Positions 4,673 through 51,805 of a stretch of 64,000 nt of DNA are shown here, in pieces. The stretch is from Halodesulfurarchaeum sp. (GTDB taxonomy: Archaea; Halobacteriota; Halobacteria; Halobacteriales; Halobacteriaceae). The stretch's first letter is position 1; the number at the start of each line of letters is the position of its first letter. The translations under genes and the position numbers were made by a program. The stretch covers positions 1,440,001 to 1,504,000 of the forward strand of contig JAXHNL010000002.1 of NCBI GenBank assembly GCA_034520565.1. The letters run 5' to 3'. The notes beneath the pieces were generated by a model. That model was not told the DNA's origin. It saw only the letters and a program-made list of their open reading frames with translations, and did not search any database.

Positions 4673-4801
4673 GTGGGGCCGGAGGGATGTTGAACTACCT
4701 GAAGACGCTCGTTTCACTCGCGTCTTCCGTCGTTGGATCCGCAAATCCACCACAAAATGGCCTCTCGCTCGGCGCCGTACGCGCCTCGCGAGAGAAGGGA
4801 G
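4673..4801 (-). repeat. tRNA-Trp 3'-end duplication module with hairpins
   Basis: gtggggccggagggat at 4673-4688 repeats 4801-4816 exactly; hairpins at 4701-4727 and 4762-4794. Confidence 0.85.
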
Positions 4802-4974
4802 TGGGGCCGGAGGGATTTGAACCCCCGATCGACTGATATCCCCGGTGCGCCTCGGCACTCCAGAGGGTCGTCATCGCGCCCGAGAGCCAGTCGAACGCTC
4901 GGTATACCAGTCTGGAGTGTCGTCGTCGGCAAACCTCTGGAGTCAGTCGCCATTCCTGGCTTGGCCACAGCCCC
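4802..4974 (-). tRNA. trnW: tRNA-Trp(CCA) with 99-nt intron (4838-4936)
   Basis: Reverse complement: GGGGCTGTGGCCAAGCCAGGAATGGCGACTGACTCCAG / intron / ATCAGTCGATCGGGGGTTCAAATCCCTCCGGCCCCA; intron at canonical position 37/38. Confidence 0.97.
4838..4936 (-). ncRNA. tRNA-Trp intron-encoded box C/D guide RNA
   Basis: C-like GACGACGA, D' CCGA, C' ATGACGA, D CCGA; guides CTCTGGAGT and GACTGGTATA are complementary to the exon junction regions (Cm34/Um39 guidance is established for the Haloferax tRNA-Trp intron). Confidence 0.85.
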
Positions 4975-10839: not shown

Positions 10840-10936
10840 CGGGCCGGCCGCGATTGGAAAACACGGTCGGAGCAAAGTTCCTCCCCGCGTTCAAATCCTG
10901 CCTGCCGGTTCACTCGTCACTGCGTGACTCGCTGTA
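10840..10936 (-). repeat. tRNA-Lys 3'-end duplication module with hairpins
   Basis: cgggccggccgcgattggaaaacacg (10840-10865) resembles tRNA end cgggccgggcgcgatttgaacacg; inverted GTTCAAATCC at 10889-10898; hairpin at 10913-10931. Confidence 0.75.
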
Positions 10937-11010
10937 CGGGCCGGGCGCGATTTGAACACGCGACCGTCTGATTAAGAGTCAGACGCTCTGCCGGACTGAG
11001 CTACCGGCCC
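10937..11010 (-). tRNA. trnK: tRNA-Lys(CTT)
   Basis: Reverse complement: GGGCCGGTAGCTCAGTCCGGCAGAGCGTCTGACTCTTAATCAGACGGTCGCGTGTTCAAATCGCGCCCGGCCCG. Confidence 0.97.
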
Positions 11011-16245: not shown

Positions 16246-17259
16246 TCACGATTCGTCGAGAAGTGAGTAAATATTCGCCTCGTAGACCGCTCGTACCCGA
16301 TCGCCCCAGTTGTGCGTGTAGGTATCGATAACGTCCGTCGCGACGTCCCCTCTGAGATACTTGACGATGCCCCGATCCCCCGTCCGATCCCGGAGATGCG
16401 TGGTGAAAAAGTGACGGAAGTAGTGGGGGGTGACGTTTTCTCCGGCCCCAGCTCCGGATTCGTACCACCCTCGGTCTCGAGCCCGGGACGTAACCAGATG
16501 GTGGACGTCGTTTCCCGTGAGACGCGTTCCCCAGTTACGTTCTGTGCTGGTAAATAGTGGCGAAGCTGGTGAGGTCGTATCCGGGCGAATCGCGAGCCAT
16601 TGGACGAGGGCGGTTCGAAGCTCATCGTCGATCGGGATGACCGTTTCGCGCTTTCGTTTGTTCGACATCTTCCGCTTTTCGCCGTTGTGTTCCTCGTTTC
16701 TGGTGGGTTCGTTCGAGACGTAGATGGTCTGTGGTCGGCCTTCCAGTTGTGGTCGGATCGGTCCTGACGGGATCGGTGTTTCGCCAAGATTGATATCTCG
16801 CAAATCGAGATTACAGGCTTCTCCCGCCCGTATACCCGTTTTTAACAGTAGTACGATGACTGCTTTCGCGAGTGGGTGGCCGACGGATCCGACGAAGGCT
16901 CTCATTTCGGGAACTGAAATGTCCCGACGGTTCGGATCCGTCGTGATTTGCTCGTCGAGTTCTTCCATTACGAGTGTCATCGGATTCTGGTCGAATATCC
17001 CGACTTCGTTCATGTACGCATAGAACCGGTGGAGGTAGGCCGCGTAACTCGCGACGGTACTTTCTGCGGCTTCATCGCGCAGCGTCGATATCCAGGCGAG
17101 ACAATCCCGGTGGGTGACTGTATCCAGTGTCGTCTCGGGGTCGAGCGAGTCTTCGAACTGGTGTAAGACGCGATCGTAGGCGTCTCGGGTGCGGTCTGAA
17201 CGGCCGTGGTAGGCCATGTCATCGAGGAAGTACTCGATTGGGTCGGTGGTTTCCGTCAT
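16246..17259 (-). CDS. XerC/D-like (XerA-type) tyrosine recombinase
   Basis: N-terminal SAM-like domain (STVASY..LHRFY); catalytic R (TGIRAGE), K (KRKRE), HYFRH, Y (DTYTH). Confidence 0.92.
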   Translation of the reverse strand: MTETTDPIEYFLDDMAYHGRSDRTRDAYDRVLHQFEDSLDPETTLDTVTHRDCLAWISTLRDEAAESTVASYAAYLHRFYAYMNEVGIFDQNPMTLVMEELDEQITTDPNRRDISVPEMRAFVGSVGHPLAKAVIVLLLKTGIRAGEACNLDLRDINLGETPIPSGPIRPQLEGRPQTIYVSNEPTRNEEHNGEKRKMSNKRKRETVIPIDDELRTALVQWLAIRPDTTSPASPLFTSTERNWGTRLTGNDVHHLVTSRARDRGWYESGAGAGENVTPHYFRHFFTTHLRDRTGDRGIVKYLRGDVATDVIDTYTHNWGDRVRAVYEANIYSLLDES

Positions 17260-51477: not shown

Positions 51478-51550
51478 AGTCCCGTGGTGTAGCGGCCAAT
51501 CATAGTGGCCTTTGGAGCCACTGACGGCGGTTCGAATCCGCCCGGGACTA
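51478..51550 (+). tRNA. trnQ: tRNA-Gln(TTG)
   Basis: AGTCCCGTGGTGTAGCGGCCAATCATAGTGGCCTTTGGAGCCACTGACGGCGGTTCGAATCCGCCCGGGACTA; TTTATT box at 51448-51453. Confidence 0.97.
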
Positions 51551-51645
51551 TTTTCTCGTAACGGAAGGTGAGCGAGATGCCCCGGGATTCGTCGGTCCAG
51601 GAAACGAGTGAAGCGCGTTTTCGCGGTTCGCATTCACCCGAGACC
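51551..51645 (+). repeat. tRNA-Gln 3'-end duplication module with hairpins
   Basis: gcggttcgcattcacccgagacc (51623-51645) vs tRNA gcggttcgaatccgcccgggact, 18/23 identical; antisense GGATTCG at 51585-51591. Confidence 0.65.
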
Positions 51646-51805
51646 GTATATCTCCGACATCGAGTCCACCTGGAACTGTAATTCCGTTGGCGCCCTCCGA
51701 ATTCTGGACCAGGAATTTGCCCAGAAAGCCATGACGAACGAACTGGACACCAACATGTGTCACTGTTTCACAAATCATTTCCTCTTGGAAATACAATCGA
51801 TTGAT

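Follow-up and report, generated by a model that had tools for sequence, protein, structure and literature searches.

Hairpin units bounded by copies of the local tRNA 3' end recur throughout Halobacteria and may be cassettes recombined at the T-loop

What is the non-coding tail that follows the tRNA-Trp gene in a 64,000-nucleotide (nt) stretch of the genome of Halodesulfurarchaeum sp. (GenBank assembly GCA_034520565.1, contig JAXHNL010000002.1, positions 1,440,001 to 1,504,000; this whole stretch is referred to as the window)? In this tail, read in the sense of the transfer RNA (tRNA), two hairpins alternate with an inverted and a direct copy of the end of the gene itself. An original prediction, made from the letters of the sequence, had proposed a non-coding mini-element of ~128 base pairs (bp) that inserts at tRNA 3' ends, possibly as folded single-stranded DNA, or the scar of such a system. 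The analysis presented here points to a family of non-autonomous hairpin cassettes that would be recombined in trans at the T-loop throughout Halobacteria, with the tRNA-Trp tail as an old, partly decayed member, a reading to which a probability of roughly 0.45 is given. In the following, H1 and H2 designate the two hairpins of a unit, X0 the last 22 nt of the tRNA (positions 52-73), rcX the inverted copy and X' the direct copy of this segment. The locus is organized as follows:

4802..4974, minus strand: tRNA-Trp(cca) gene with a 99-nt intron (aragorn with introns; Rfam tRNA, 44.6 bits)
4823-4802, minus strand: X0, the copied source, last 22 nt of tRNA-Trp (positions 52-73)
4674..4801, minus strand: whole tail unit, 128 bp (trailer, H1, inverted remnant, H2, direct copy)
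4762..4794, minus strand: H1, CTCTCGC-GA-GGCGC-GTACG-GCGCC-GA-GCGAGAG (sequence, hairpin finder and predicted folds)
4742..4753, minus strand: decayed rcX, GTGGTGGATTTG (sequence)
4701..4727, minus strand: H2, GAAGACGC-GA-GT-GAA-AC-GA-GCGTCTTC (sequence and hairpin finder)
4674..4695, minus strand: X', GTTCAACATCCCTCCGGCCCCA, direct copy of tRNA-Trp positions 52-73 (gapped alignment)

The two hairpins, the GGATTTG stretch and the near-copy of the tRNA end all lie, on the minus strand, where the original prediction had placed them. H1 consists of a 7-bp stem, a tandem G.A/A.G mismatch, a 5-bp stem and a 5-nt loop, and homologues of it have been found after tRNA-Trp in the relatives G001 and G006. 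H2 is built from an 8-bp stem, GA, 2 bp, a GAA triloop, 2 bp, GA and the returning stem, so that both hairpins hold symmetric 5'-GA/3'-AG mismatches. The remnant between them includes GGATTTG (4748-4742), the antisense of the T-loop. According to the gapped alignment, X' differs from the last 22 nt of the tRNA by one extra C in the T-loop (TTCAACATCC) and by a change of the first base, and this same variant also occurs in G007, in G002 and in a second genus (G019). Compared with shuffled sequences, the predicted fold of the tail reaches z = -2.5 with RNA and -2.4 with DNA parameters on the sense strand, and -1.7 with DNA parameters on the antisense strand.

The unit is not restricted to tRNA-Trp. 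The source assembly (G000; 1.86 Mb in 2 contigs, 62% G+C, 80.7% complete) has 50 tRNA entries by aragorn, several of which are false calls in coding DNA. When the 3' end (22 nt) of each tRNA was compared, ungapped, with the 300 nt downstream of it, 21 of the 50 entries showed a copy matching 16-22 of their own 22 nt at a distance of 75-150 nt, while the same test carried out upstream as a control gave a maximum of 14/22. With gapped alignment and 45 entries, 36 units stand behind 22 tRNAs. Two congeners in which all tRNAs were compared with those of the source genome show similar numbers: 43 units behind 22 of 42 entries in G001, and 34 behind 22 of 44 in G010. Neither of the outcomes that would have refuted the original prediction, a lack of recurrence beyond chance or an origin of each case from unrelated deleted proviruses, has occurred; its ~128-bp element is borne out as one of a set of recurring non-coding units of ~75-170 bp tied to tRNA 3' ends. 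Two further units lie within the window:

10840..10936, minus strand: second unit, after tRNA-Lys(ctt) (10937-11010); X' matches 19/22; no unit here in the congeners G001 and G010
51551..51646, plus strand: third unit, more decayed, after tRNA-Gln(ttg) (51478-51550); X' matches 16/22

All units share a constant order, in which the tRNA is followed by a short stretch rich in T (CTTCT or TTTTC in many cases) and then by H1, rcX, H2 and X'. The inner part of rcX is the anti-T-loop GGATTYGARCC, X' begins at G52/G53, and the repeat spans tRNA positions 52-73 in nearly all copies. Unit sizes are confined to a narrow range, and the architecture does not vary among the 22 tRNAs. Units also form arrays, of up to three in the source genome and up to five in a congener, in which direct copies alternate with inverted ones, each separated from the next by a single hairpin. 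The copied arms belong to the local tRNA: rcX follows even odd T-arms, such as ACT at Val-tac, AATT at Gly-ccc and ATTCAAATT at Pro-cgg, and at Gly-gcc it matches 21/22 by manual sequence reading (computed score 19/20). An ungapped test for copies closer to another tRNA flagged 22 of 113 copies, 20 of which proved to be indel artefacts and 2 real, leaving 111 copies of the local tRNA type and two clear heterologous cases. An extra C in the T-loop is frequent in older copies (Trp, Lys-ttt twice, Pro-tgg and His twice in the source genome; Phe in G001 and G010). In all seven arrays of the source genome, the copy next to the tRNA is at least as intact as the distal ones.

Two observations on individual tRNA ends accompany these data. 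The tRNA-His gene of the source genome (G000:C2:673678-673750) has a 6-nt T-loop, TTCAAT, where G001, G010 and its own first downstream copy read TTCAATT; the single missing nucleotide reflects either an error in the assembly or a recent loss from the gene. In addition, a second type of tail, CCCAC(G)TTTTT followed by a GC-rich hairpin and AAAAAC(G)TGGGGAAAAAG, stands after tRNAs that lack copy units (for example at G000:C2:1329590-1329670, C2:467512-467570 and C2:404270-404330) and sometimes within arrays (Gly-gcc and Gly-ccc of G001 and G010). Its sequence suggests a terminator acting in both directions or a small element with inverted repeats.

The hairpins exhibit a marked strand specificity, as the original prediction had anticipated. 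In predicted folds, tandem GA/AG loops number 48 on the tRNA-sense strand and 1 on the antisense strand, and a geometry-based finder located GA hairpins in the tails at sense to antisense ratios of 25:2, 23:2 and 18:0 in the three genomes (66:4 in total). The sense strand is predicted to fold more stably than its complement in 24 of 27 units with RNA parameters (mean sense-minus-antisense gap -6.5 kcal/mol) and in 22 of 27 with DNA parameters (mean gap -1.6). Genome-wide, hairpins with a tandem GA mismatch amount to 79, compared with 5-8 each for AG, AA and CA, 23 for AC and 36 for GG, and 31 of these 79 are found within 700 nt downstream of tRNAs. When 20 short H2 sequences, taken from 13 genomes, were aligned, 94.9% of the cells proved to be paired and 9 of 19 pairs to have changed on both sides; none of the 500 shuffles was as good and the slid controls collapse. 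Throughout this alignment, the two Gs and two As that form the tandem mismatch never change and the two-base-pair mini-stem covaries, while pair 9:48 of the stem between anti-T-loop and T-loop is GU in 10 sequences and AU in 9. At the apex of most hairpins stands GCGNAGC or ACGNAGT, a GNA triloop on a 2-bp stem. Such data reveal selection for the fold of a single strand, which may be RNA or DNA.

A K-turn or K-loop was considered for the GA motif and set aside, as a 3-nt bulge is missing and the mini-stem of 2 bp covaries; for a hammerhead or other ribozyme, no Rfam match was obtained. When the tRNA-Trp tail and seven other tails were searched against Rfam with cmscan (E up to 1), only tRNA and three weak, unrelated sub-threshold matches were obtained. 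Separately, a cluster of GA-mismatch hairpins is located away from tRNAs at G000:C2:1364600-1410430; one of them, at C2:1410398-1410424, has the same apical sequence as the H2 of the window (CGCGAGTGAAACGAGCG).

The comparison between strains that the original prediction had suggested, in terms of presence, absence and copy number, revealed that units differ among close relatives. Of 19 tRNA-Trp loci found in relatives, two are cut by contig ends, seven hold a full unit (the source genome itself, four of its congeners and a single genome from each of two further genera), one holds H1 plus a short acceptor copy, and nine have none. The tRNA-Trp of G010 is the empty form of that of G001, in which the repeat comprises the copy and 8 further bases. 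The copy variant TTCAACATCC persisted across two genera while the hairpins around it changed. For other tRNAs, the number of units in G000, G001 and G010 is 1/0/1 at Arg-tcg, 1/0/0 at Lys-ctt, 1/0/0 at Cys, 0/0/1 at Gly-tcc, 0/0/2 at Gly-ccc, 1/4/4 at Gly-gcc, 2/5/2 at Ser-tga and 3/3/1 at Leu-tag, and no unit is present in any of the three at Ala-tgc (in the rRNA operon), three Thr, Gln-ctg, Leu-cag, Ser-gct and others. Because many tRNAs lack a unit in all three genomes and the counts differ for the same tRNA, the units are dispensable. The clearest single event is found at Glu-ctc, where a clean 102-bp unit stands next to the tRNA in G010 and is missing in G001; the repeat extends from G51 to A73 and the flanks are otherwise collinear.

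The inner hairpin also changes independently of its surroundings. H2 has been replaced, with H1 and the flanks unchanged, at Ala-ggc, Val-cac and Leu-tag (G001 compared with G010). A 47-nt H2 is identical at Arg-tct of the source genome and Gly-ccc of G010, and the adjoining T-loop letters are those of each local tRNA. Similarly, the H2 of the tRNA-Trp unit recurs between TTCGAAT-type T-loop copies in the tail of another tRNA in G008 (1 difference) and G001 (4 differences). At Leu-taa of G001, the first copy matches the 3' part of Leu-tag in 21/22 positions and the local tRNA in 18/22, and it is followed by a Leu-tag-type unit; judged by its sequence, this hybrid places a crossover inside the shared GGTTCGAATCC. 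Other rearrangements include tandem duplicates with identical H2 (Gly-gcc and Ser-tga of G001), a deletion joining two inverted copies (Leu-tag), and repeats that extend beyond the end of the tRNA (X + 80 bp at Gly-ccc of G010, X + 8 bp at tRNA-Trp of G001).

The family is spread across a whole archaeal class. A strict core pattern, GGATTYGAR-N15-75-GTTCRAATC, has 25 matches in the source genome, all of them in tRNA tails or in two displaced Arg-tct units. Among 301 Halobacteria genomes of at least 90% completeness, 294 hold the pattern and 7 have no match, and the reversed pattern used as a control gave 0 throughout. A sample of the phylum gave the pattern in 22 of 24 further Halobacteria, but outside the class in only 10 of the 126 genomes, with one match each. 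When named genome contigs were searched with the 18-nt arm of one hairpin family, 108 stretches were matched; about one third of the 81 listed are haloarchaeal (Haloarcula, Halomicrobium, Halosimplex, Natronorubrum, Natronobiforma and metagenome-assembled genomes of Halodesulfurarchaeum), and the non-haloarchaeal matches among these 81 are close to the estimated chance expectation in 596 Gb. In named cultured species, all four loci examined have the match 32-188 nt behind a tRNA on the same strand, and tRNA-Leu(tag) of Halomicrobium katesii is followed, 81 nt downstream, by a perfect 22-nt copy. When arrays were compared by BLAST with plasmids, the tRNA part alone or nothing was matched, and nothing was matched in phages. 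A pattern scan of viral contigs matched at least 119 stretches; the 80 listed, which were examined, are mostly real tRNA-Ser genes plus an unrelated perfect palindrome, and one of them (L037) is unit-like and stands at a contig/host flank. No description of these haloarchaeal units was found in a targeted literature search (of largely open-access main text), and the available portions of PMC3119063, PMC5861418, PMC3495736 and bioRxiv 10.1101/2022.07.05.498093 make no mention of them.

According to these data, units are gained, lost and multiplied next to tRNAs; H2 is exchanged between tRNAs and between species; the junctions coincide with GGTTC, the universal T-arm sequence at positions 52-56, and with its inverted twin; and the design of the hairpins suits folding of the tRNA-sense strand alone. 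The single strand rcX-H2-X' would fold into a stem that mimics the double-stranded end of the tRNA gene, in the manner of integron attC or of the attP of the CTX phage, which acts as a folded single strand. A recombinase provided in trans would then exchange strands at G/TTC of the T-loop. As the intact tRNA is the only site with a full T-arm, new units would enter there and push older ones downstream, and such entry would be the cause of the polarity of the arrays, in which the proximal copy is mostly at least as intact as the distal ones; a decayed T-loop would lock old units in place. As presumed parts of the tRNA transcript, the units probably also have hairpins of a form that leaves tRNA maturation undisturbed.

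A more ambitious form of this proposal is a selfish element with a target-programmed attachment site: a mobile hairpin would enter the T-loop of any tRNA copy, acquire local direct and inverted copies, and thereby build the folded single-stranded mimic on which an enzyme common to Halobacteria acts. This form is judged less likely than not. As for the source of the copies, reverse transcription of mature tRNA was set aside by inference, given that the copies run through T-loop positions, and these positions are modified in mature haloarchaeal tRNA.

Several observations weigh against recombining cassettes. No recombining enzyme for the units was found in the source genome with PF00589 and PF01797; of its four tyrosine recombinase genes (PF00589), two belong to integrated elements of large size and another is chromosomal and syntenic. 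Neither an excised form, nor a circle, nor an autonomous relative was seen in the contigs of four DNA runs, the viral contigs or the source genome, and the best DNA-run contigs break inside the tRNA-Trp unit, at 4734 and 4811, with no contig spanning it. How units gain the correct local direct and inverted copies is left without an account. Since 111 of 113 copies are of the local type, whole units would seem to move only rarely between different tRNAs. The growth and loss of arrays and the swapping of H2 can be produced by ordinary recombination between repeated copies, and the single Leu-tag unit of G010 looks, in sequence, like a recombinational deletion of the three-unit array of G001. In the Met-cat array of G001, it is the proximal copy that is more divergent. 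Finally, the sense-strand bias is what a constraint at the RNA level would give, with a larger energy gap for RNA (-6.5 kcal/mol) than for DNA (-1.6), and at least one haloarchaeal tRNA trailer is a stable RNA, according to the accessible part of Heyer 2012 (PMC3495736).

These last two points lead to the explanation that survives best among the alternatives, in which the units are transcribed tRNA trailers with a role at the RNA level. The rcX:X' stem would mimic the helix of acceptor and T-arm, 3' processing would cut after each copy, and stable small RNAs would be released or the 3' end of the precursor protected; arrays would arise by duplication and gene conversion, and the units would be the counterpart of the E. 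coli rtT repeats. The hairpins and nearly all tandem G.A loops (48:1) are indeed on the transcribed-sense strand, and a G.U wobble occurs where anti-T-loop and T-loop pair in half of the H2 sequences. Short T-runs follow tRNAs with or without a unit, which makes read-through plausible; T-runs after the tRNA, after internal copies and after last copies do not differ, and hence do not discriminate on transcription. In the cleanest indel, at Glu-ctc, the repeat ends at the discriminator base, and in E. coli K-12 the small RNA (sRNA) RttR starts 8 nt after tyrV and ends with the first copy of the tRNA 3' end. The retention of TTCAACATCC between changing neighbouring hairpins points in the same direction, as does the stable trailer mentioned above, a ~60-nt RNA from tRNA-His of Haloferax volcanii in what is accessible of its source (PMC3495736).

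Other data speak against a trailer RNA. The units are dispensable, and at one and the same tRNA they differ from congener to congener. Within the copy, the T-loop segment pairs with its antisense, and for this reason the copy cannot form a T-loop. At Gly-gcc, the inverted copy also complements the discriminator base, which points to a copy of DNA over a tRNA-like design. Moreover, no match was obtained in Rfam, RtT included, a family that is present in that database. Altogether, a role as trailer RNA is judged unlikely as the explanation of the family.

A second alternative dispenses with dedicated machinery: tRNA 3' ends and stable hairpins would simply be hot spots for template switching and unequal recombination in polyploid cells. 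Quasi-palindrome correction would give X-H1-rcX and then rcX-H2-X, unequal crossing-over would produce the arrays, and gene conversion would shuffle the hairpins. This passive route agrees with the alternation of direct and inverted copies around single hairpins, with the agreement between rcX and unusual T-loops of the local tRNA (those of Val-tac, Gly-ccc and Pro-cgg given above), with the tandem identical-H2 duplicates at Gly-gcc and Ser-tga of G001, with the deletion that joins two inverted copies at Leu-tag, and with repeats that at times run past the tRNA end (by 80 bp at Gly-ccc of G010 and 8 bp at tRNA-Trp of G001). However, it does not account for the invariant GA..GA alongside covarying stems, for identical H2 at different tRNAs of different species, for a distribution that fills one class and is nearly missing in its sister classes, or for the constant left border at G52/G53. 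This route is regarded as quite unlikely. Both the RNA role and passive recombination may be partly true alongside the recombining cassettes.

The remaining alternative concerns proviruses, and the large inserts at tRNAs of the source genome bear on it. There are three of these, a tandem of 9 kb and 4.5 kb at Arg-tct and one of 20 kb at Pro-cgg; they have 13-14-nt cores and unrelated ends, and are placed in copies of pre-existing units. Their main features are the following:

G000:C2:516872-530640: tandem elements of ~9 kb and ~4.5 kb after tRNA-Arg(tct), with similar right ends and the core CCCGTCGTGCCCG (13-14 nt)
C2:525169-525756: open reading frame (ORF) for a tyrosine recombinase, 391 amino acids (aa), in the 9-kb Arg-tct insert
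G000:C2:706770-727012: 20-kb island, from tRNA-Pro(cgg) to a 14-nt copy of the core, followed by an old hairpin unit
C2:709723-710292: integrase gene of the Pro-cgg island, with an in-frame TAG

The tRNA itself is the insertion site of one Arg-tct element; the second occupies the copy that belongs to an older hairpin unit. From the position of the inserts in older copies it follows that copies of units act as extra attachment sites. A genome-wide search of all 22-nt copies in the source genome revealed no large element with the 22-nt repeat that includes the T-loop. For comparison, haloarchaeal integrases of the SNJ2 type use a 14-bp core at the very 3' end of the tRNA, as stated in the part of PMC5861418 that is available. 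That the units are scars of deleted proviruses or plasmids, once integrated by ordinary tyrosine integrases, was rejected as very improbable: direct repeats of tRNA 3' ends are the classic mark of such integration and real elements of 9, 4.5 and 20 kb do exist at tRNA-Arg(tct) and tRNA-Pro(cgg), but these have short cores and lie in copies of older units, no large element has the 22-nt repeat, the units are of narrow size (~75-170 bp) and constant architecture at 22 tRNAs, and the one unit-like match among the 80 viral stretches listed stands at a host flank.

Some neighbouring features can be added. The Pro-cgg island begins with a gene for a small CxxC protein, and the same gene starts inserts after tRNA-Trp and tRNA-Lys in relatives. 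The window also encodes a tyrosine recombinase:

16309-16866 of the window, minus strand: tyrosine recombinase gene, 397-aa open frame (syntenic ORFs of the same length in G001 and G010; 403 aa in G063)

This is probably a chromosomal Xer-like gene. A tRNA-Glu with a 279-nt intron called by aragorn at 16594-16951 of the window is a false call inside it. Lastly, the intron of tRNA-Trp (window 4848-4931, minus strand) has a sub-threshold match to the C/D-box family sR-tMet (24.8 bits, cut-off 50); presumably this fits the box C/D guide known in haloarchaeal tRNA-Trp introns.

If the cassettes do recombine at the T-loop, an entire archaeal class would possess an unfamiliar recombination system whose target is the best-conserved stretch of every tRNA gene, 11 bases long; a target-programmed element would further provide a general route by which tRNA genes are colonised, duplicated and perhaps split. 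If the units are transcribed trailers instead, the small RNAs linked to tRNAs would gain a large new family, marked by a tandem G.A motif that does not vary. The units also bear on the origin of partial tRNA copies, on the creation of secondary attachment sites for proviruses (two elements of the source genome are seated in such copies) and on the old puzzle of the E. coli tyrT repeats, and also on annotation, where tRNA fragments and hairpin repeats are easily taken for attachment-site (att) scars. Halobacteria include genetically tractable genera, and therefore gain, loss and protein partners are directly testable.

Among known systems, small palindromic repeats are the first to be compared. 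Repetitive extragenic palindromes (REP) and bacterial interspersed mosaic elements (BIME) with their REP-associated tyrosine transposases (RAYT), and the haloarchaeal palindrome-associated transposable elements (PATEs) described in the available part of PMC3119063, resemble the units in being small, non-coding, abundant in intergenic regions and probably active as folded single strands. From what can be seen of the same source, they differ in having no target duplication and no tie to tRNA ends, whereas every unit is bounded by copies of a tRNA end. The Y1 HUH transposase (PF01797) is present in 4 of 5 unit-rich genomes tested; it was not found in the source genome (80.7% complete) or in G063 (99% complete, with 48 pattern matches), a result that argues against a route of the IS200 or REP kind and weakens the REP-like option of the original prediction. 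Nor do the units agree with miniature inverted-repeat transposable elements, as their inverted arms are copies of the local tRNA and so differ from tRNA to tRNA.

A structural parallel is the d(GCGNAGC) mini-hairpin, an extraordinarily stable DNA structure according to the accessible part of PMC13037366. The same apical motif is found in most hairpins of the units; in contrast to the DNA described in that part of the source, it invariably sits on tandem G.A mismatches and a longer stem, as part of a natural genomic repeat.

Integrative elements of tRNA genes are a further comparison. Elements with a crossover in the T-loop, and cis-mobilizable elements (CIMEs) without an integrase, were reportedly described by Williams in 2002 and by Pavlovic in 2004. 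Like the units, tRNA-integrating elements and CIMEs accrete in tandem at one tRNA and leave copies that are secondary attachment sites, and the sublocation at the T-loop is shared, as the repeat corresponds to positions 52-73 in nearly all copies and the indel at Glu-ctc is clean. They differ in that the units are of 75-170 bp, hold no gene and occupy at least 22 different tRNAs per genome. A search of the 22-nt copies in the source genome gave no autonomous, integrase-coding relative with the same att repeat, and no integrase gene lies within or beside the units. The SNJ2-type integrases differ as well by their 14-bp core at the extreme tRNA 3' end (PMC5861418, as far as its text is available).

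The integron attC sites offer an analogous layout. Arrays are divided in both cases by imperfect palindromes with an inverse core and a core (GGATTYGARCC and GGTTCRAATCC in the units), which have a variable centre, a conserved structure and strand-specific mismatches; the newest unit apparently stands at the primary site, and the crossover is placed at G/TT. However, the units come without intI, attI or a Pc promoter, their cargo is a 30-70-nt hairpin and not a gene, and the primary site is the T-arm of a tRNA. The arrays stand behind 22 tRNAs and none of the four PF00589 genes of the source genome is arranged beside them as intI would be; two of these genes sit in large elements next to displaced older units. 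The attC core RYYYAAC/GTTRRRY is also absent: the bounds of the units are GGATTYGARCC and GGTTCRAATCC, and the layout is analogous, with arms that copy the local tRNA.

The closest known relative of the haloarchaeal units is provided by the rtT repeats of E. coli tyrT/tyrV, whose history is said to go back to Egan and Landy in 1978 and to Bosl and Kersten in 1991. Both are tandem non-coding units after a tRNA, each of them ending in a copy of the tRNA 3' end. In E. coli K-12 (NC_000913.3:1286000-1288300), three copies stand behind tyrV, each matching 19/22 and 178 bp apart. Each 178-bp unit holds an inverted 10-nt piece of the tRNA end (GGGGAAGGAT), a GCGAAGC motif and a copy of the 5' strand of the T-stem with half of the T-loop (AAGGTTCGA), and the copied T-arm looks as if it had been split by a hairpin-rich insert. 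The annotated RttR sRNA covers the first unit; it begins 8 nt behind tyrV and stops where the copy ends. Differences are also apparent: rtT is confined to a single locus in one bacterial lineage, its copy starts inside the T-loop and includes the encoded CCA, its unit is larger and contains a small ORF (tpr), and it shows neither a class-wide family at half of the tRNAs nor a shared, exchangeable hairpin. The haloarchaeal arrays have the tandem copies typical of rtT, and homology to the RtT family was not detected by cmscan (E up to 1). According to these comparisons, the haloarchaeal units are described as a variant of att-flanked mini-elements, attC-like cassettes and rtT-type repeats, with a real chance that they represent a new kind of element.

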